Shown here piece after piece: positions 2,755 through 54,078 of a stretch of DNA of 64,000 nt (position 1 is the first letter of the stretch; each line of letters opens with the position of its first letter). This DNA comes from an uncultured delta proteobacterium (GTDB lineage: Bacteria > Desulfobacterota > Binatia > UBA9968). The translations under genes were made by a program, and so were the position numbers. The stretch covers positions 64,001-128,000 of the forward strand of contig CAWJZV010000009.1 of the NCBI GenBank assembly GCA_963847445.1, written 5' to 3'. Under the pieces are notes generated by a model, which worked only from the letters and a program-made list of their open reading frames with translations, made no database searches and was not told the origin of the DNA.

Positions 2755-4447
2755 ATGGATCCAACTACCGACACAATCACCGGCGCTGAAGCCGCGGTGG
2801 AAATGCTCAGGCTGCACGGCGTCGAATTTATTTTCGGCCTGTGCGGCGACACCAGTTTGCCGTTCTACGACGCCTTGGCGCGCCTGCCCCACGGCATGCG
2901 CCATATTCTCGCCCGCGACGAGCGCTCCGCCGCTTACATGGCCGACGGCTACGCGCGCGTGTCGGGCAAAGTCGGCGTGTGCGAAGGACCGAGCGGCGGC
3001 GGCGTCACTTATATCTTGCCCGGCTTGGCGGAAGCCAACGAATCTTCCGTGCCGCTCTTGGGCATCAATAGCGACATCTCGGTCGGCGCGCGCGGTCACT
3101 ACACGCTGACCGAACTGGATCAGGGCGCGCTCATGCGGCCGGTGACCAAATGGAACACCGTGGTCGATGGCGCCGAAGATCTGCCCCAAGCATTTCGCCA
3201 AGCATTCAAGCAAATCACTATCGGCGCGGCCCGGCGCGGCCCATATCGCTCTGCCCTTCGACGTGCAGAATGGCTTAGTCGCTCGTTCGGAAGTTTACGG
3301 CGATGCGAGTTTCGGCAGTTGTCCGGCGGAACGGATCGCGCCCGCGGCAAACTCGGTGGAAGCCGCCGCGCGGTTGCTAACTCAAGCGCGCAATCCGGTG
3401 TTTATCTGCGGCGGCGGAGTCGTGATCTCGCAAGCCGAGCCCGAGCTTGTCGAACTCGCCGAGCGGCTCTCGGCGCCGGTGGCGACGACCATCAGCGGCA
3501 AATGCTCGATTGACGAACAGCATGGGCTCGCCGTCGGCGTGGTCGGATCCAACGGCGGCACGCCTGAGACACGCGCGATCGTCGATCAAGCCGATCTGAT
3601 CATTTTCGTGGGCTGCCGCGCCGGCTCGGTGACCACTGAACGTTGGCGCCATCCAGCCAAGGGAAGCACCAAAGTCATTCATCTCGATGTCGATGTCGCG
3701 GTTCCCGGCACCAATTATCCGACAGACGCGGCGTTGGTCGGCGATGCCAAGCTTGGGCTAAAAATGTTGAATGAAGCGCTGGCGGCCACCCGCCGGCCGC
3801 TCGATGCCGCGCGAGTGGAAGCAGCGAAAGAACAGAAGTTCGCAAAGTTCCAAGCGCTCGCTGAGTCGAACGAAACACCGATCAAGCCCGAACGCGTGGT
3901 CGCCGAACTGACGCGCGCGCTCGAACCCGACGCCATCGTCGTCGCCGATGCCGGCACCCCATGTCCGTATTTCTCCGCCTACTATCCGGTGCGAGGCAAC
4001 GGGCGGAAATTTTTTTCCAACCGCGCCCACGGCGCCCTCGGTTACTCGATGGCGGCCGCCATGGGCGCGCACTTCGCGCAGCCGAAAGTGAAATGCGTTG
4101 CGGTCATGGGTGACGGCAGTTTCGGCTTTACCTGCGGCGAGCTGGAGACCGCCGCGCGCTACCGGCTGCCGGTGACATTTATCGTGATTGCCAATGCAAG
4201 CTACGGCTGGATCAAGGCGGGACAACGCTCGGGTTACGGCCAACGTTACTTCGCGGTCGACTTCGCCGTCACCGATCACGCCGCCGTCGCCGCCGCCTTC
4301 GGCGTCAAAAGCTGGCGCGTCACCGAACCGAGTGAATTGGCGAAGACACTGAAAGAAGCGTTAGCACATGACGGACCGAGTCTTGTAGATATCGTCTGTC
4401 AGCCGCTGCACGAAGCCAAGGCGCCGGTGTCGGAATGGATCGCGTGA
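2755..4447 (+). CDS. Thiamine pyrophosphate-dependent enzyme (acetolactate synthase large-subunit-like), frameshift near 3225
   Basis: The N-terminal ORF has RDERSAAYMADGYARVSGK. The C-terminal ORF has the TPP motif GDGSFG...N. The two overlapping ORFs join into one protein. Confidence 0.88.
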
Positions 4448-4454
4448 AGAGATG

Positions 4455-4606
4455 GCGCAAAGAACGCAAAGTACGCAAAAAACTGGAGTAGCTTCGTAGG
4501 GGCAACCCGATGTGGTTGCCTTTCCGAGCGCAGCCCTTTGGCGGCAACGTTCCAAGGATTCGGAAGTTTCTGTTTCCTTACTTGTGACCTTTGCGTTCTT
4601 TCGGCT
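4455..4606. repeat. Inverted 9-mer repeat element (CGCAAAG.. / ..CTTTGCG) containing a GTAG-type REP
   Basis: GCGCAAAGAACGCAAAGTACGCAAA ... GTAGGGGCAACC-N-GGTTGCC ... CTTTGCGTTCTTTCG between convergent genes. Confidence 0.6.
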
Positions 4607-4614
4607 CAAACTTC

Positions 4615-5082
4615 CTAATTCTTCAGCCGCACTCTCGTTCCCAGATTCGCGCAGTCCTCATCGGTCATCAGGCCGGCAGCGCGAATGCCATGGGCGGCGA
4701 GTTCTTCGTCGCGCTCCTGGGTGTCGCCGGTGACGCCGACGGCACCGATGACATCTCCCGCTTGATCTCGGATCAACATGCCGCCGCCCTCGGCAAAAAT
4801 CTGATCGTCCGAGGCGCGCATGAGATACTGCATGAACAGCGGACGCTCTTCGGTGCGCATGCGCACCAGCGATGACGAGCGCCCAAGCGCCAGCGCCGCG
4901 TACGCTTTGCCGTAGGCCATCTCGAAACGCATCATCGCCGAGTCGTCTTCTTTCTGAAATGCTTTGACCTTGGCGCCGGGCTCGACGACGATCACACTCA
5001 TCGGCCGGCAAGCCAGCTCACGGCCGCGCGCGAAGATCGCTTCGATGATGCGATTGGCTTGCGCCAACGTGATCATGCTCAT
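4615..5082 (-). CDS. GlcG/HbpS family heme-binding protein
   Basis: ITLAQANRII...MAYGKAYAALAL...GGMLIRDQAGDVIGAVGVTG...DEELA pattern. RBS GAGGAGG. Confidence 0.85.
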   Translation of the reverse strand: MSMITLAQANRIIEAIFARGRELACRPMSVIVVEPGAKVKAFQKEDDSAMMRFEMAYGKAYAALALGRSSSLVRMRTEERPLFMQYLMRASDDQIFAEGGGMLIRDQAGDVIGAVGVTGDTQERDEELAAHGIRAAGLMTDEDCANLGTRVRLKN

Positions 5083-5126
5083 AGGACCTCCTCTGCGATC
5101 TTGGTGCAGTTGTCAACGAAATCGTC

Positions 5127-5147
5127 AGGGCGACCGGCGGTCGCCCT
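5127..5147. repeat. REP-like palindrome (GGGCGACC-GGC-GGTCGCCC)
   Basis: Perfect 9-bp stem. Near-identical copy at 38931-38955. Confidence 0.65.
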
Positions 5148-7077: not shown

Positions 7078-8152
7078 CTACGGCTCTTTTTGCTCGGCGC
7101 TGGCGTACTCTTCGAAATAGAGATCGAGCAGCGCGCGCAGCAGCGCGAAGATCGCCGGTCCGAGCACGATGCCGACTGGGCCGAACAACGCAATGCCGCC
7201 CAGGATGCCGAAGAAAAGAAACAGCACGGGCAGACCCAAGCGATTGCCGATCAGTAAAGGTTTAAGGACGTTGTCAATGGTTCCGACCACGCCCAAGCAC
7301 CAGGCGAGCAAAATGATGCCGCGAATGGTTTCACCCTGAAGAAACAGGTAAATCGAAACCGGGATGGAAACGAGCGTCGAGCCGCCCACGGGCAAGAGCG
7401 CGACAAACGCCGTGACCACGCCCCATACCGCCGCAAACGGCACGCCCAAGATCCAGAAGGCGAGTCCGGCGAGCAGGCCTTGTACCATGGCCACGACCAA
7501 CGAGCCGTGGATGACGGCGAGCACGGCATCGACGATGTTTTTGAGCAACCTTGTTGATGCTCCTGGTCCATCGGCAGCAGCCGCCGGATCTTGTGCAAGA
7601 ACTGCGGGCCGTCGCGCAGCAGAAAAAAGAGCGTGAACAGCGCGATGACAAAGTTCACGGTGAACAACAGCACGTTCTGCGCCACGCCCGTGACCTTTGA
7701 AACCAGAAAGGCCGACGATGCCTGCGCGCCCTGAACCAATCCCTCTTTCCAATTGATCTTGAAATCAATCAAGCTAAACGAGACCATATTCCACCAACCC
7801 ACGAGCTGTTGTACCCAGGGTTTGGCGCAGCCACTCTTGTTTGCCCGTCGTCGCTCAGGAGCGTGCGCACGGACTGAACCAGCGAGGCAGCTTCGTCGGA
7901 AAGAAACCAGGCGAGTTCGAATCCCGGTACGATCACCAGCAAGGTAATAAAAATCATGACGACGATCGCGGCCAGCGTCGCCCGCCCGCGCAGGAGTTGC
8001 AGCAGCCAAGCGTAGAGCGGATAGACCAGGATCGCCAAGATCACCGCCCAGGTGATCGCCGTGATAAACGGACTGATGATCAGATACGCGCCATAGAGAA
8101 TCAGCAGCAGCAAGGCAAAGAAAAAAGCGGTCACGAGCCAGGTTCGGTTCAC
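7078..8152 (-). CDS. AI-2E family transporter (split by at least 2 frameshifts)
   Basis: PFITAITWAVILAILVYPLY; LFFLLRDG; QGLLAGLAF; IDNVLKPLLIG; GGIALFGPVGIVLGP. Confidence 0.88.
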
Positions 8153-21664: not shown

Positions 21665-22750
21665 ATGCCAAACAAAATCTTAATCGTCGACGATGAACCG
21701 TTCAATCTCGATCTGCTCGAACAAGAGCTGATGGAGTACGAATATGTCCTCGAGCGCGCCACCGACGGCATCGACGCGCTGGCGAAAGCTGATAGTTTCA
21801 GTCCGGACATCATCCTGCTCGACTACATGATGCCGAGGATGAACGGCCTCGAAGTCGTCAGGGCGCTACGGCAGAGCGAGCGCCACAAGAGCGTGCCGGT
21901 GATCCTCTTAACCGCCAAAGCGACTCAGGAAGACAAGATCGCCGGCCTCGACGCCGGCGCCGACGATTATGTCACCAAGCCGTTCGATTCTTTCGAGTTA
22001 TTAGCGCGGGTGCGCGCCATGCTGCGCATCAAAGAGCTGCACGACCAACTGGGCGACTGGAATCGCACGCTGGCGGAGAAAGTTCAGCAACAAGTCGGCG
22101 AGCTCAAGCGCATGGAGCGTTTGAAACGCTACCTCTCGCCGCAAATCGCCGAGACCATCCTGGAGAAAGAAGAAAACCTGTTCAAAACCCATCGCCGCGA
22201 GATCACCGTGGTGTTCCTCGACCTGCGTGGCTTCACGGCGTTCTCGGACAATGCGGAGCCCGAGGAGGTCATGGACCTTCTGCGCGATTATCACGCCGAG
22301 ATGGGCAAGTTGATTTTCCAATTTGAAGGCACACTGGAACGTTTCGTCGGCGACGGCATCGTGGTGATCTTCAACGATCCGCTGCCCTGTGAAGACCATG
22401 GCCGCAAAGCCGTCAGCATGGCGATCGAGATGCGCGACCGGGTGAAAGAACTGCGTATCGCGTGGACGAAGAAGGGCTACGATCTCGACCTCGGTGTCGG
22501 CTTAGCCACCGGCTACGCGACCTTGGGCACCATCGGTTTCGAGGGACGCATGGACTATAGCTCGGTCGGTAATTTGCCAAATCTCGCGGCGCGCATGTGC
22601 GCCGAGGCCAAGGGCGGACAGATCCTCACCGACCAAAAAACCATGAGCCGGTTGGAAGAGTTCTTCGATAGCGAAGCCTTCGAGGAATTCCAATTGAAAG
22701 GACTAAGCCGTCCGGTGCGAGTGTTTAATATCGTCGCAACGAAGGCGTAG
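21665..22750 (+). CDS. Response regulator-class III adenylate/guanylate cyclase
   Basis: REC domain then [38 protein letters not shown]. Confidence 0.92.
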
Positions 22751-23114
22751 CGGCAATCCCTCCGTGTCACGCTGTCTGCGTCAGAGGTTTTTTTTCCTTG
22801 TCTGCGCCTACTTCAAATTTCGCAACGCGAACCAATTTCCTGCCAGCTTCCGAGTGACAGCGATCGCGTTTCCCATCTGAGTTAGCTTCTATCAGCGCGA
22901 TTCTACGCGACGCGAATGATGATTTTTCAAAAATTGGCCGGGCAATCTTTCTCCAGCGTCATTACAACGCGGCATGGGATCAAGTTTCACGAATAAAACA
23001 ACGCGTCGTTAAATTGTAACGCGTCGTTGCAAGCAAACTCTATCAAGACATCGTAGTTCGGCGCATGCGAATAGAAAATTTTCGGAAAAAAAATTGTAGA
23101 ATAGTATTTTTTTC

Positions 23115-23144
23115 TTGACATACTATTAATTGTGTCATTATACT
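23115..23144 (+). promoter_or_regulatory. Near-consensus sigma-70 promoter with overlapping inverted repeat
   Basis: TTGACA-18-TATACT, AT-rich upstream tract, TGACA-N12-TGTCA palindrome. Confidence 0.8.
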
Positions 23145-23258
23145 CTGCGCAGGTACAAAATATGGGAGGGTTGCTGATAGTAAACTGTCTTCGCCTGAGT
23201 CAAGCTGTTCTTCCTATCAAGAAAATACCCGCCCGTTTAATCTTACAAGGAGGTGCTT

Positions 23259-23306
23259 ATGGCAGCTAAGAAAAAGGCCAAAAAGAAAGCCAAAAAGAAA
23301 AAGTAG
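23259..23306 (+). CDS. 15-aa Lys/Ala-rich micropeptide MAAKKKAKKKAKKKK
   Basis: Extended SD AAGGAGGT immediately upstream of the ATG, own promoter and terminator. Below the ORF-track length cutoff. Confidence 0.72.
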   Translation: MAAKKKAKKKAKKKK

Positions 23307-23391
23307 TCAATTAGTTGTGGGGTTGTGGTGGTGGTAGTATAAACCCTCCTTACTCTCAGGCGACCAGATAACCGTTCTGGTTATCTATCAC

Positions 23392-23431
23392 AGAAGCCCT
23401 CCGGAGATGATTCGGGGGGCTTTCTGCTTTT
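23392..23431 (+). terminator. Rho-independent terminator
   Basis: AGAAGCCCTCCGGA-GATGA-TTCGGGGGGCTTTCT followed by GCTTTT. Confidence 0.8.
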
Positions 23432-23591
23432 AGAAACTACGTTTCCATAATTCTTGAGCGTCTCAGACCGGCATATCGCCAACATAGCAACGAGTTTTAC
23501 CTGGCCTGCTCATGGGAACCAATTTACCGCGGTGCCGGTTGCATCAGTGTCCTTATTGCGCCGCTTTGAACAGTTGGTTAGAGTGTCGCGA

Positions 23592-24167
23592 ATGTCTAAG
23601 ATCAAGCCTCCGCATATTTACTTGGCTCTCTGTCTGGTTCAGCTGATTTTTCTCGGCTGGACAGCTCGCGCCGGCGACGCCGCCGAGTCCTCAAGCAAAG
23701 CCGACTACAAAGCGGTGCCGATTCTCCAGCCGATGAAAGAGGTCGCGCCGACGCCGGAAATCAATCTCACCACACCCGACGGCAAAAAGATTTCTTTGCG
23801 CGACTTTCGCGGCAAGATCGTTATGTTGAATTTTTGGGCCAGCTGGTGCGTCCCTTGCCGCGAAGAGATGCCGGCGATGGAAAAGCTCTATCAAGAATTT
23901 AAGGACAAAAACTTTGTCATCCTCGCGGTGGCGGTCAAAGATCGCAAACAAGACGCCGTCGATTTCGTCAAGGAACTCAAGCTCACCTATCCAGTCGCCC
24001 TCGATCCAGAGGGGAAAGTCGGCCAGGAATATGGCGCTTGGGGATTGCCCGCGACCTATCTCATCGGTCCCAAAGGCGAGGGTTTGGCGCGCGGTTGGGG
24101 ACCGGCGGAGTGGCATGGCGCGGGCGCGCGTAAACTGATCAAAGACTTGGTCGACGGCAAGCGATGA
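23592..24167 (+). CDS. TlpA/ResA family thiol-disulfide reductase
   Basis: NFWASWCVPCREEMPAM, N-terminal TM/signal, GLPATYLI. Confidence 0.9.
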   Translation: MSKIKPPHIYLALCLVQLIFLGWTARAGDAAESSSKADYKAVPILQPMKEVAPTPEINLTTPDGKKISLRDFRGKIVMLNFWASWCVPCREEMPAMEKLYQEFKDKNFVILAVAVKDRKQDAVDFVKELKLTYPVALDPEGKVGQEYGAWGLPATYLIGPKGEGLARGWGPAEWHGAGARKLIKDLVDGKR

Positions 24168-24901
24168 CCGACGTCAACGCCTTTGTCGCTTTCGCCGCCG
24201 GGATTTTTTCTTTTCTCTCTCCCTGCGTATTGCCGCTGATCCCATCGTATCTTTCTTTCGTTTCGGGGGTTTCCCTTGACGAAATGCGCAGTAAGCAGGC
24301 GCGCTCGCAGGTACGCTGGCGCGTCCTGCTCAACTCGCTGGCGTTTATTTTGGGCTTCTCCTTGGTCTTCGTCTCCCTGGGCGCGTCGGCAAGTTTTCTC
24401 GGCGGCCTGTTTATGGGCTATCGCGACGCCATTCGCATCACCGGTGGGATATTTATCTTGCTCGTCGGACTCTATCTGGTCGGTGCTTTCAAGATCACCG
24501 CTCTCGACCGCTATTTACAGTTCAATTTGAAAGACAAGCCGGCCGGTTACTTAGGTTCGGTCCTGGTCGGCATCACCTTCGCGGTCGCTTGGACGCCTTG
24601 CGTCGGTCCGATCCTCGGCGCCACGCTGGCATTGGCCAGCACCTCCGGCGAAATCGGCCGCGGCACGTTCTTGCTCATGAGCTATGCCGCTGGTCTGGGG
24701 CTGCCATTTTTCTTGAGCGCGCTGGCGATCGACTCATTTTTTCAGTTCTCGCAGAAACTGCGCCACTATATTCAAGCGATTCATGTGGTCGGCGGCATTC
24801 TCTTGATCGTCGTCGGCATCCTGTTGATCACCGACTACATGACCATTTTGAATGCCTACGCGCTTCGTTTTACGCCCCACTGGCTGCTGCAGCGGCTCTA
24901 G
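24164..24901 (+). CDS. ccdA: Cytochrome c biogenesis protein CcdA
   Basis: SFLSPCVLPLIPSY and WTPCVGPILG motifs. Confidence 0.92.
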   Translation: MTDVNAFVAFAAGIFSFLSPCVLPLIPSYLSFVSGVSLDEMRSKQARSQVRWRVLLNSLAFILGFSLVFVSLGASASFLGGLFMGYRDAIRITGGIFILLVGLYLVGAFKITALDRYLQFNLKDKPAGYLGSVLVGITFAVAWTPCVGPILGATLALASTSGEIGRGTFLLMSYAAGLGLPFFLSALAIDSFFQFSQKLRHYIQAIHVVGGILLIVVGILLITDYMTILNAYALRFTPHWLLQRL

Positions 24902-24991
24902 CAGCTAGTTTGTTTGACCCGTCACAGGCTAAATGTTAGCTTTTTGAAACTTAACTCTAGGTCAATGAGTCCCGCCAACAGCGGAGCAATC

Positions 24992-25541
24992 ATGGAAGAA
25001 CAGATTCGGCAAATTCTCAAAGCCATCGGCGAAGATCCCGAGCGTGAAGGACTGCTTAAAACGCCGCAGCGCGTCGCTGAAGCACTGGCCTTTTTGACCC
25101 GCGGTTATGACATGGACCCTGAGAAGGTGATCAACGATGCGCTGTTTACCGAAGATTACTCGGAAATGATCGTCCAGCGCGACATCGATTTTTACTCGTT
25201 GTGCGAACACCACATGTTACCGTTCATCGGCAAAGCTCATGTCGCCTACATTCCGCATCATAAAATTGTCGGTATCTCCAAACTCGCCCGGCTGGTCGAC
25301 ATTTATGCGGCCCGCTTGCAAGTCCAAGAGCGCATGACCAACCAGATCGCCACGACGATCATGGAAAAACTCGACGCCCTAGGTGTCGCCGTGGTGCTCG
25401 AAGCCGAACATCTGTGCATGCGCATGCGCGGCGTGGAAAAACAGAACTCCTACGTCATCACCAGCAGCTTTGCTCGGCGCCTTTCGGACCCGCCAGGAAA
25501 CCCGCGCCGAGTTCATGAATTTGATCCGGCGCAAGGATTGA
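24992..25541 (+). CDS. folE: GTP cyclohydrolase I (frameshift near 25468)
   Basis: [41 protein letters not shown]. The shifted frame gives [23 protein letters not shown]. Confidence 0.92.
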
Positions 25542-25552
25542 GCGAGAGCGCC

Positions 25553-27031
25553 ATGATGGAAATCCGTTTTCGCGATAGCACCGCTGACCGCATAAAATCC
25601 GACTTGGTCGTTATCCCCGTGCGCGATAAGCAGCTCGACAACCCGGCGCTGCGCGCCCTCGACCGCCATCTCAAAGGCCAGCTGCGCGCGCGCATGAGCA
25701 AAAGTAATTTCACCGGCGCCGAAGGCAGCGTTTTGCTGCATCCGACCGCGGGCATGCTGCCGGCAGCGTATCTGTTGCTCGTCGGTATCGGCGCTGGCGA
25801 AACCAGTGGCGACACATGGCGCAAGGCCGGCGCCAAGGCGCGCAAAGAAGCCGGCGCCATCGGTGCCGGCGAATTCGCCATGCTCTTGACTGCGGAAAAC
25901 AATCTCGAGAGCGCCGCCGGCGCCATCGTCGAAGGCGCCGCACTGGCCGGCTATCAGTTCAACAAATATCGATCGAACGGCAAGCCCGCTACGGCACTGA
26001 ATCGTTTGACCCTGTTTCGTTCCGGTTTAAAGAAAACCAGCGGGTTGCAGAAATCGGTAGATATCGCGCAAGCCACCGCGCCCGGAGTTTTCCTGGCGCG
26101 CGATTTGGTTAACGAACCGCCGTCGGTGGCGACGGCAAAATTTCTCGGCGCCCAAGCCCAGCGCGCCTGCCAAGGCCGCGGTCTATCGGTGGAAGTGTGG
26201 AACAAGAAAAAAATCGAGGCGATGAAGTTAGCCGGCCTGCTGGCGGTCAATCGCGGCAGCTTGGAAGAGCCGCGCTTCATTCGTATCCGCTACCGGCCCG
26301 CCGGCAAAGCGCGCAAGCGCGTCGCGCTGATCGGCAAAGGCATCACCTTCGACTCCGGCGGCCTGTCGCTCAAGCCGTCGAAATCGATGGAGACCATGAA
26401 GCTCGACATGGCCGGCGGCGCCGCGGTCATCGCCACCATGAGTTGCCTGCCCAAGTTGGGCCTCGATATCGAGGTCACCGGCTACGTGCCGACCACCGAC
26501 AATTTGCCGGGCCATAATGCGCAGAAGCCCGGCGATGTCATTCGTTATATGAACGGCAAGACCATCGAAGTGTTAAACACCGACGCCGAGGGCCGCTTGA
26601 TTCTCGCCGACGCGCTCGCTCTAGCGGCGCAACAAAAACCCGACTACATGATCAATCTGGCCACGCTGACCGGCGCCTGCATGACCGCTCTCGGCACGCA
26701 GGTTGGCGGCATCTTCAGCAACCACCAGCCGTTGGCGGACAGTCTGCTGCGGAGCGGCCAGGAAGCCGGTGAAAAACTCTGGCAACTGCCGCTGGTGAAG
26801 GAATATAAAGAGCTGATCAAGAGCGCTGTCGCCGACATGAAAAACATCGGCGGCGCCCATGGCGGCGCCATCACCGCGGCGCTGATCCTGCAGGAGTTCG
26901 TCGGCGACACCGCCTGGGCCCATCTCGACATCGCCGGCCCCGCCTTTGCCGAAAGCGACAATCTGCTCGGTCCCAAAGGCGGCACCGGCTTCGGCGTGCG
27001 CACGTTAATAAAATTTTTGCTGAGTCTTTAA
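25553..27031 (+). CDS. pepA: Leucyl aminopeptidase (M17)
   Basis: [33 protein letters not shown]. Confidence 0.94.
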
Positions 27032-53026: not shown

Positions 53027-53116
53027 GCATCAAGCCATTGCGTATTGGTACCTCCATACCCTGTCTTCGCGGCGACACGTTGACAAGCTTTTGCATCGCC
53101 GATTATAGTCGCCTCC

Positions 53117-54078
53117 GTGAAACCATCGTCACGGAACTCAATCCTTTACGCGCTGTTGGTTCTAATATTCGGGGCTTCCGTCCATGCCCAAGAGCAGCGC
53201 AAAGTGCGCCTGGCCTATTCGGCCTTTAGCGTTTCATTTCTTAAATTTATTCGTCGCCCGCGACGCCGGTTTGTTCAAAAAATATGGACTTAGAACCGGA
53301 ACTGATCCAGATGGCCGGACCGTTGCCGGTGGCCGCCCTCGCCTCCGGTGAGATCGATTTCCTCACCGGCTATACCACCGGCATCATCGCCACGGGCCAA
53401 GGCGCGCCGCTCAAGGGCATCCTGATCGCCCTGCGCAAACCGCCTTTTTACGTCGTCGCCGAGCCCGGCATCCAACGCATCAACGATCTCGCCGGAAAAC
53501 GCATCGGCGTCGATCGCATCGGCAGTTTGCAGCACCTGGTCGTCCGTCTGCTCATGCGCAGCAAAGGCGCCGATCCCGAGAAGGCGATCTTTACCCAGAC
53601 CGGTTCGGTGTCGAATACTGTGAGCAGCTTGGGCCAGGGCGCGGTGTCAGCGGCAGTGTTGTCGGGACCGCACAACGTCATCATGGGACAAAAAGGCTTT
53701 CGCCAAGTCGGCGCCGCGGACGAGTTGCCGATGCAGTTTCCCACCAGCGGCTTGGTCGTAAATGAAAGCAAATTGAAGAGCGACGCCGCGCGCATCAAGA
53801 ATGTCATCCGGGTCATGCTCGATGCCTCGGCGTTCTGCCGCAAAGAGCGAACCTGGATGGTCAATTACATCCGCGACAAGTGGAAGGTCGAGCAAAAAAC
53901 CGCCGAGACCGTCTACGACCAGTGGCTGGGAATCCTCACGCCGGATGGTAAGATCGGTATCAAAGACATGCAGGAGTATTTCGACCTGGCGTATAACCAG
54001 AAACAGATTCCCGCGCCGGTCAACGTCGCCGCGGTCACCGACTACACCTTGATCGATCAAGTGTTGGCGGGAAAATAA
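53117..54078 (+). CDS. NMT1/TauA/SsuA-type substrate-binding protein (frameshifts near the N-terminus)
   Basis: Signal peptide, KVRLAYS, ALASGEIDF, DLAGKRIGV. Confidence 0.82.

Follow-up and report, generated by a model that had tools for sequence, protein, structure and literature searches.

The 64,000-nucleotide (nt) stretch of DNA analysed here (the window; positions 64,001–128,000 of contig CAWJZV010000009.1, assembly GCA_963847445.1, from a 7.19-Mb genome that is 91.8% complete) carries at 23115–23431 a micro-gene unit in which a promoter, a 9-nt Shine-Dalgarno (SD) sequence, a very short open reading frame (ORF) and an intrinsic terminator follow one another in that order. The ORF encodes MAAKKKAKKKAKKKK, a peptide with 10 Lys in 15 residues. 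Taken with its conservation in relatives and its presence in RNA libraries, the layout leaves us highly confident that the micro-gene is genuine, coding and expressed, with transcription and termination of its own. As to what it is for, the explanation we favor overall, at a little under even confidence, is that it supplies an abundant polycationic Lys/Ala peptide that binds RNA, most likely the ribosome.

Each of the expression signals proposed in a preliminary description of this DNA is present at its place, and all of the features below lie on the plus strand. The sigma-70-type promoter (23115–23144) consists of TTGACA at 23115–23120 and TATACT at 23139–23144 with 18 nt between them, and it agrees with the consensus at 11 of 12 positions; on both strands together, a consensus scan finds only two sites with this score in the window and 24 in the genome. 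The −35 box and its flank, CTTGACATAC, show no variation among the aligned loci. The A/T-rich block just 5′ of the −35 box (23089–23114), whose run ATTTTTTTC is almost invariant in the alignments, may serve as an UP-like element. The mean identity to the window among 67 distinct relatives is 0.70 at 23089–23108 and 0.90 at 23109–23128, with 0.25–0.44 farther upstream. From the position of the −10 box, transcription is predicted to start at ∼23151, which on that basis gives a leader of ∼108 nt, in line with the ∼110 nt first suggested. The extended SD, AAGGAGGTG at 23247–23255, is complementary over all 9 nt to the 3′ end of the genome's own 16S rRNA (...GGATCACCTCCTTTCT) and has a 5-nt spacer next to it; its core AAGGAGG is invariant in 67 of the 67 rows of our alignment of distinct transcripts (A1). 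The 48-nt micro-ORF runs from ATG at 23259 to TAG at 23304–23306 (23259–23306) and reads ATG GCA GCT AAG AAA AAG GCC AAA AAG AAA GCC AAA AAG AAA AAG TAG. Within 86 nt of the stop codon stands the terminator (23393–23431), found by a terminator scan and corroborated by covariation, with a 13-pair G+C-rich stem at 23393–23423, a 5-nt loop and a T-tail to 23431. The whole lies in an AT-rich island, with a G+C content of 0.38–0.43 across 23000–23400 vs 0.53–0.61 on either side.

We note that the segment between the −10 box and the predicted start (23139–23151) carries G+C-rich CTGCGC, CGGCGC or CGCGCC in the closest relatives and lacks them in more distant ones. G+C-rich discriminators of this kind are reminiscent of stringently controlled rRNA and ribosomal-protein promoters.

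The unit is single-copy in its own genome, where neither a genome search nor the set of 2487 SD-preceded ORFs of 7–41 residues yielded a paralogue of the micro-gene; within that set, only this micro-ORF exceeds 40% Lys (71%). A genome of the same genus (G003) has the unit twice (C26:27868–28206 and C25:188373–188711), each copy 97% identical to the window; a genuine duplication, a mixture of strains in the bin or redundancy among the contigs could explain this.

A DNA search with 23100–23440 recovered the unit from 27 of 41 relatives, and it is present in 81 of the 123 genomes of the same order: 75/89 in family f1, 5/5 in family f2 and 0/28 in family f3. Among genomes with a completeness of 90% or more and a contamination of 5% or less, 33/58 have it. 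These tallies, like the spermidine-synthase counts given below, include some unpublished genomes (G005; G076, G079 and G093 in part), on which no claim depends. The named public records that carry the unit are mostly labeled Candidatus Binatia, with a few labeled "delta proteobacterium", Syntrophobacter or Chloroflexota by their depositors. The f2 copies are 68–72% identical to the window unit, which is high for intergenic DNA. Family f3 gave no DNA match in its 28 genomes and no KKKAKKK-coding pattern in five near-complete (97–99%) ones; a laxer pattern found only an ATG-GCG-CTC-AAG-AAG-AAG start in two of these five, a match of the start alone, ORF length aside. When the 67 distinct relatives are compared with the window, identity averages 0.25–0.44 upstream of 23089, 0.52–0.90 at 23089–23428 and 0.21–0.38 downstream, so the conserved block runs exactly from promoter to terminator.

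The micro-ORF evolves as a coding sequence. Conservation of SD, ATG, frame and stop, on which the preliminary description had staked the gene, holds in 78 of 78 loci (L001–L027 minus L011, L148–L187 and 12 from the pattern scan described below), each with an SD and a K-rich ORF of 12–19 residues, and the changes seen are mostly synonymous. The 51 distinct nucleotide ORFs among these loci encode just 22 peptides, and a single 16-residue peptide, MAAKKKAKKKAKKKKK, is encoded by 11 different nucleotide sequences. In the 16-residue class (n = 14), the variable columns at codon positions 1/2/3 number 1/1/13, and the third positions of GCN codons vary freely. Length differences among the 51 ORFs are whole codons, the stops are TAA in 43 and TAG in eight, and the GGAGG-5 nt-ATG spacing is kept in 76/78 loci. 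The 720 non-Met residues of the 51 ORFs comprise 510 K, 189 A, 9 R, 9 T, 2 V and 1 P. Because the relatives are not independent, all of these counts overstate the number of evolutionary events.

One could suppose that the ORF arose by chance between genes, where a promoter and a terminator are conserved, and that it has no function as an ORF, since it is very short and of low complexity and A-rich tracts are common in AT-rich intergenic DNA. The conservation data contradict this. The SD, start and stop are kept throughout with codon-wise substitution, the ORF is a unique outlier among the 2487 short SD-preceded ORFs of its genome, and among the matches listed in the pattern scan (120 loci) 85 are short ORFs, vs a chance expectation that we roughly estimate, rather than compute, at less than one. 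We regard a chance origin as extremely improbable.

Transcription across 23259–23306 is supported by RNA libraries. A run search with the stretch returned matches in 20 runs, which belong to 15 studies of soil, sediment and biofilter and include six metatranscriptomes, and we compared four RNA runs (X15, X16, X17 and X19) with 22600–24400; X15 and X16 belong to one study and X17 to a second. X15 yields a single contig, 23183–23425, and X16 a single contig, 23194–23402, both identical to the window, while the 1.8-kb flanks have no contigs in either run. X17 yields an identical contig, 23171–23373, at a depth of 221 vs 2.4 for contigs of the flanking genes. X19 contains contigs of relatives, one of which begins upstream of the promoter at 23081. 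Among the contigs listed for the four runs, none bridges the terminator into tlpA, and the X15 contig ends at 23425; the contigs as a set give a weak hint of transcripts ending at the terminator. The RNA was assembled even from very small metatranscriptomes (32–35 million letters). Metatranscriptome contigs cannot prove transcript ends, strand, level or translation, and parts left uncovered are not evidence; within these bounds, the data are good evidence of far more transcription in the unit than in its neighbors, and its RNA appears, with the same caveats on depth, to rank among the more abundant transcripts that uncultured bacteria make in soil and sediment. Together with the promoter-to-terminator conservation, these contigs substantiate the view that a stand-alone transcription unit here serves an ORF too short for gene callers.

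Beyond what the preliminary description held, the transcript contains conserved blocks and structure outside the ORF, including pairing between its 5′ and 3′ parts. We folded the 67 distinct transcripts of A1 with RNAalifold and counted pairs with two-sided changes against shuffle controls. The consensus fold predicts four helices: a clamp b:b′, a pairing of c with the SD (GG.GG of the SD), a hairpin H3 and the terminator. Element b (CGCCTGAG, 23192–23199) pairs with b′ (CTCAGGCG, 23355–23362) through alignment columns 56–63 and 279–286, with 99.1% of cells paired and two-sided changes in 2/8 pairs (C-G to U-A in three sequences, A-U to G-C in one). H3 (23366–23386; arms AGATAACC and GGTTATCT, loop GTTCT at 23374–23378) has two-sided changes in 7/8 pairs, in up to 23 of 67 sequences, with 97% of cells paired, and the terminator helix has them in 6/10 counted pairs with 94.2% of cells paired. 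For the structure as a whole, the observed values are reached by 0–3 of 500 shuffles across five measures, and sliding the 3′ partners lowers pairing from 96% to 38–60%. The solid result is a compact RNA in which a clamp between the 5′ and 3′ parts encloses the SD and ORF, with a recognition-type hairpin and a terminator.

Further blocks are conserved around this frame. The 5′ block (23151–23172, ...ACAAAATATGGGAGGGTT), which includes the predicted 5′ end of the transcript, is nearly invariant in A1, and its element a (GGGAGGGTT, 23164–23172) is complementary to a′ (AACCCTCCTTA, 23342–23352), a nearly invariant, anti-SD-like element that can pair with either a or the SD. In the a:a′ pairing, 94.5% of cells are paired, most pairs being invariant or changed on one side only; since a:a′ crosses b:b′, the two together would make a pseudoknot, or they are alternatives. 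At column 271, a′ is unpaired with a in 6/67 sequences and with the SD in 11/67, which is not decisive. The C-rich element c (CCCGCCC, CCCRCCC in relatives; 23228–23234) lies 13 nt 5′ of the SD, and a conserved G/U-rich block (GTTGTGGGGTTGTGGTGGTGGT, 23315–23336) lies just 3′ of the stop. A predicted pairing of this block with the bases just 3′ of the SD finds no covariation support in A1, and the pairings of c with the G/U-rich block and of a with c were set aside, their covariation being no better than that of shuffles. We also rejected the G/U-rich block as a coding sequence, whether a read-through extension or a second ORF, because no frame is open or constant across relatives, and an ORF that would begin with the ATG at 23162, inside the 5′ block, whose register differs between families and is followed by a hairpin with indels that are not multiples of three. 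In the window and in relatives, the G/U-rich tract (A1 columns 237–255, UGUGGGGUUGUGGUGGUGG) contains GG runs enough for a two-layer G-quadruplex. The H3 loop GTTCT (GTYCT in relatives) stays fixed while its stem covaries freely, as might be expected of a site for binding or for a kissing interaction; the idea that H3 mimics helix 45 of 16S rRNA was discarded because the common ACAAGGTARCCGT occurs in only 10/67 transcripts and is absent from the window's own.

So much structure raises the question of whether the RNA itself is the main effector, that is, a stable regulatory RNA (a base-pairing small RNA, a protein sponge or a ribosome decoy) in which conserved single-stranded blocks (the 5′ ACAAAAUAUGGGAGGGUU, the GU-rich tract, the H3 loop GUUCU and the anti-SD-like a′) act in trans and translation is secondary or acts as a switch, as in a dual-function RNA. 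Several observations are in keeping with this: the blocks outside the ORF are about as conserved as the ORF (mean identity 0.65–0.80 vs 0.77–0.89), H3 presents an invariant-type loop on a covarying stem, a form that recognition sites typically take, pairing joins the 5′ and 3′ parts as it does in stable RNAs, the RNA assembles even from the smallest metatranscriptomes, and a′ resembles the anti-SD tail of 16S rRNA. Against it, the substitutions in the ORF are coding-like, with free GCN third positions and whole-codon length differences, and what recurs across phyla is the peptide type with its SD-ATG layout, not the flanking RNA sequence. No Rfam family matches: Rfam 15 over 22700–23800 gives a best E-value of 0.44, to an unrelated snoRNA model, the whole window has no gathering-level match, and among 18 loci of other phyla there are eight matches (six tRNA, two Acido-Lenti-1), none at the position of the micro-ORF. 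A gene for Hfq was not found in the genome, although at 91.8% completeness its absence is not proven; the idea of an Hfq sponge was dropped on this ground, a weak one. The coding signature and the recurrence of the peptide, rather than of the RNA, across phyla weaken the case for an RNA effector, which we consider unlikely.

The recurrence just referred to, which the preliminary description does not mention, came from a pattern scan of one genome per species for GGAGG-N4-9-ATGGCNNCNAARAARAARRCNAAR, which met at least 120 loci. Since the pattern fixes the first eight codons, the figures for spread are lower bounds and the common N-terminus is partly imposed by the search. Among the matches listed (120 loci), 85 are ORFs of up to 30 residues: 12 of the Binatia type, 46 MATKKKAK...H peptides in records labeled Acidobacteriota, and 27 others, whose labels include Verrucomicrobiota, Terriglobia, Brevinema, Patescibacteria, Planctomycetia, Bacteriovoracaceae, Anaeromyxobacter and Auribacterota. 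The oligolysine peptides of these look-alike stand-alone units have 11–30 residues, and one of them, MATKKKAKKKKH, occurs exactly in 36 of the Acidobacteriota-type loci listed. A terminator-like site lies 3′ of 63/85 of the listed short ORFs, vs 78/420 random control sites, and a promoter-like site (≥9/12) lies 5′ of 70/85, vs 21/420 random sites. The Acidobacteriota-type units have a conserved leader of their own (∼125 nt) and a terminator that covaries, and their SD is predicted to pair with a CCUC ∼20 nt past the stop. The peptide type and the SD-ATG layout thus recur with different flanking RNA sequences, and common descent, transfer or convergence could each be their source.

The same scan also matched long K/A-rich proteins of 90–380 residues with the same first residues. 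A locus labeled Candidatus Dormiibacterota (L028, 5920–5955, minus strand) holds an Acidobacteriota-type unit with MATKKKAKKKKH and the same leader and terminator pattern, either by transfer or through a binning error. A Planctomycetota-labeled locus (L119, ∼4061–5135) has three tandem paralogous ORFs of 54–57 residues that start MA(A/S)KKKAKKPL..., so that here the basic N-terminus belongs to small proteins of greater length. In an Acidobacteriaceae-labeled record (L033), Acido-Lenti-1 matches at 7271–7316 (+) and 7454–7501 (−), with 47.5 and 50.3 bits (gathering threshold 37), lie ∼2 kb from the micro-gene.

A short ORF that is 67% one amino acid (10/15 codons Lys; K 510/720 over the 51 ORFs), with a terminator within 86 nt, also has the makings of an attenuator. 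In such a scheme, ribosome speed over the ten AAA/AAG codons would sense Lys codons or tRNA-Lys and select either the terminator at 23393–23431 or an alternative fold, thereby tuning read-through into tlpA-ccdA-folE, with the peptide as a by-product. The G-rich and C-rich blocks (a, SD, c, a′ and the terminator arms) could pair alternatively, attenuators are expected to yield much short leader RNA and little read-through, and there are precedents, such as the AAG-containing leader of abrB (PMC13733827). The genomic context speaks on both sides. Around the unit in the window lie genes for two response regulators, of which one has a cyclase domain, for an ABC substrate-binding protein, a TlpA-like thioredoxin and CcdA, and for a GTP-cyclohydrolase-I/M17-aminopeptidase fusion, and none of these neighbors is ribosomal or tied to lysine. 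Genes upstream of the unit vary among relatives; by tblastn with the window proteins, tlpA lies downstream in 21/27 loci and ccdA in 25/27, the latter with loci of family f2 among them. These counts include L011, from the unpublished genome G005; the same locus was part of one alignment used for the promoter region and of none of the later analyses. The link to tlpA-ccdA-folE drawn in the preliminary description therefore stands as conserved synteny within the order and fails in the look-alike units of other phyla, where the neighbors are MerR regulators (downstream in 20 of the Acidobacteriota-type loci among the matches listed), a sulfatase, PlsY, RmuC or ThrRS.

An attenuator is further disfavored by the nature of the downstream genes, as a thiol-disulfide oxidoreductase, CcdA and a GTP cyclohydrolase I/aminopeptidase have no known tie to lysine. 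In f2, ccdA was found in 4/5 loci and a tlpA match in 0/5, and at one of these loci (L055) the gene immediately downstream encodes an alpha/beta hydrolase. The likely start of tlpA, at 23592, lies some 160 nt beyond the terminator. A1 shows no conserved antiterminator: the candidate alternative pairings a:a′, SD:a′ and c:SD are conserved complementarities that lack two-sided changes, and changes in the 5′ arm of the terminator are compensated inside the terminator and not with element a. The exact conservation of MATKKKAKKKKH in 36 loci points to selection on the product. With downstream genes that are unrelated to lysine and non-conserved, and with an antiterminator that is unsupported, we judge the attenuator to be improbable.

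We return to the reading that we favor, an RNA-binding polycation made from a dedicated micro-gene. Translation, peptide abundance, the binding target and any feedback are what we infer from the features above, and the steps would be as follows. The near-consensus promoter, with the A/T-rich block upstream, would drive a transcript of ∼280 nt. The b:b′ clamp, possibly with a:a′, would tie the ends of the transcript together while H3 and the terminator close its 3′ end, making a compact, long-lived mRNA. The maximal SD 5 nt before the ATG would load ribosomes onto the 15-codon ORF. With Met removed, the mature peptide would probably be AAKKKAKKKAKKKK, of net charge ∼+10, and could accumulate as a small RNA-binding polycation whose likeliest target is the ribosome, as for eL41, bS22, bL37 and THX. 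The C-rich blocks c and a′, which are able to pair with the SD, may provide translational feedback, and SD masking by either is possible. As a function, an RNA- or ribosome-binding polycation is plausible without being probable on our analysis. The autonomy of the unit counts in its favor: the neighbors differ between phyla, and the look-alikes have promoter- and terminator-like sites of their own.

A number of points weigh against this interpretation. The gene does not lie in a ribosomal-protein gene neighborhood in any phylum examined, the window included, and bS21 is present in the genome, so the idea that the peptide replaces bS21 was rejected. To our knowledge, a 12-residue peptide would be shorter than any known ribosomal protein. 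The spread is patchy (2/401 genomes in a sample of the window's phylum, 6/101 in a class sample around an Acidobacteriota-labeled genome, 0/28 in f3), and the peptide consequently cannot belong to the ribosomal core. Part of the triplet regularity of the ORF, an (A-A-R)n tract, would suit an RNA motif too. As for SD masking, the SD:a′ pairing (93.2% of cells paired) is a conserved complementarity with no two-sided changes, c:SD shows only one-sided C-to-U changes, and thermodynamic prediction of masking gave no signal and was abandoned (probability of GGAGG being unpaired 0.22 in the native RNA vs 0.28 with shuffled flanks).

The peptide may instead be made and have a target other than RNA or the ribosome, acting as a protamine-like DNA condenser, a polyphosphate counterion or a protein-made substitute for polyamines that buffers polyanions. 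The extreme charge density of MAAKKKAKKKAKKKK, which has no hydrophobic or signal segment, would suit such a role, as would the conservation within the order of composition rather than exact sequence (22 peptide variants); AKK-type repeats are found in nucleoid proteins, and our scan also met K/A-rich proteins of 90–380 residues. On the other hand, spermidine-synthase-like genes are present in 53/54 f1, 4/4 f2 and 27/27 f3 genomes, no sign of polyamine substitution; because these genes occur in all three families, with no complementarity to the unit, the polyamine-substitute idea was rejected. In its sequence, the promoter is more like a vegetative sigma-70 site than like one used in stationary phase, and no polyphosphate or nucleoid genes were seen among the neighbors. 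We hold a DNA, polyphosphate or polyamine-like role to have a small share of the probability, a downweighting that comes only from priors, as the data do not separate DNA, polyphosphate and RNA as targets.

Taken across phyla, the results suggest, tentatively and as a possibility short of probable, a class of stand-alone oligolysine micro-genes (11–19 codons) with clades in several phyla, each with its own strongly expressed, structured, terminator-ended mRNA, whose product would act either as a tiny component that is ribosomal or bound to RNA, or as a "protein polyamine". Its level would be controlled by cation-sensitive folds of its own mRNA that mask the SD. The same kind of unit recurs in genomes labeled Acidobacteriota, Verrucomicrobiota, Patescibacteria and Spirochaete. 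If such a class is real, these would be previously unrecognized bacterial genes, among the shortest conserved protein-coding genes known, and the peptide, if made, would rank among the smallest conserved gene products of bacteria, one that no standard annotation reveals. The unit would then be a test case for how much functional coding lies below the 30-codon cutoff, for gene-encoded oligocations in bacteria alongside polyamines and Mg2+, and for further lineage-specific micro-proteins on ribosomes. It is also a compact natural expression cassette, comprising a promoter, a maximal SD, a stabilizing 5′/3′ clamp and a terminator.

Two other features of the window were observed in passing. The 705-residue ORF at 24914–27031 joins a GTP cyclohydrolase I domain (residues 27–189) to a complete M17 leucyl aminopeptidase (N-terminal and catalytic domains, 233–699), an unusual fusion. 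The only other promoter-like site in the window with a score of 11/12, TTGACA-18-TATAGT at 53080, precedes an ORF (53117–53293) with a signal-peptide-like start, which overlaps, in another frame, a 264-residue ORF at 53284–54078; the two look like one gene split by a frameshift or assembly error near 53230–53290.

Database comparison placed the peptide in no known family. Pfam and NCBIfam searches with nine variants of 20–30 residues returned 0 families at E ≤ 10 (the 15-residue peptide itself is below the 20-residue query minimum), a PDB sequence search with a 27-residue variant returned 0 matches at E ≤ 10, and an exact look-up of ten variants of 20–30 residues among 15 billion predicted proteins found none recorded. 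We found no description of such a gene in open-access papers or on bioRxiv, the supplements of which (small-ORF catalogues, for example) were outside our reach.

Comparison with known systems is therefore one of layout and composition. RNAs such as SgrS/SgrT, SR1/SR1P and RNAIII/hld also encode a small peptide. Like the present unit, these dual-function RNAs are short, stable and terminator-ended, with conserved structure outside a small ORF; in contrast to them, the ORF here is central and SD-optimized, there is no known base-pairing target or seed, and the peptide type recurs across phyla. The his, trp and leu attenuators, the polycysteine ORFs and the abrB leader share the layout of a short ORF dominated by one amino acid, a terminator and an operon downstream on the same strand. 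The polycysteine short ORFs of mycobacteria are reportedly cysteine-responsive attenuators. In Bacillus subtilis, an AAG-containing 7-residue leader peptide of abrB senses MnmE-dependent decoding (PMC13733827). The present unit differs from all of these in that its downstream genes are unrelated to lysine and not conserved across clades, an antiterminator is unsupported, and the peptide itself is conserved.

The preliminary description had compared the peptide with histone-H1-like proteins (Hc1/Hc2, AlgP), and the composition is indeed alike: Hc1/Hc2, AlgP, the HupB tail and protamines have a similar AKKK-type composition and charge density. The comparison holds for composition only. Histone-H1-like proteins have ∼50–380 residues or are tails of folded domains, whereas the product here is complete at 15 residues and has its own promoter and terminator; they form long arrays of repeats or sit as basic tails on folded domains that bind DNA, and the ORF here ends after 15 codons, with 12–19 residues in 78/78 relatives.

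The closest parallel in kind is with the tiny polybasic ribosomal proteins. These include eL41 of eukaryotes and archaea and THX of Thermus. The tiny ribosomal proteins bS22 and bL37 (mycobacteria, Bacteroidia) and bL38 (Bacteroidia) are said to have been found by structure work, not by annotation. In contrast to some of them, such as bL38, the micro-gene does not lie in or next to a ribosomal operon, and its product has no family match. The ribosomal proteins are also longer, with mixed Arg/Lys and specific motifs, where the peptides described here have 12–19 residues and are nearly homopolymeric Lys. Like the present peptide, eL41, bS22, bL37, THX and bL38 are restricted to certain lineages, combine a very small size with a very basic character and routinely escape gene callers, and a strong promoter with a structured mRNA, as found here, would also suit a ribosomal component.

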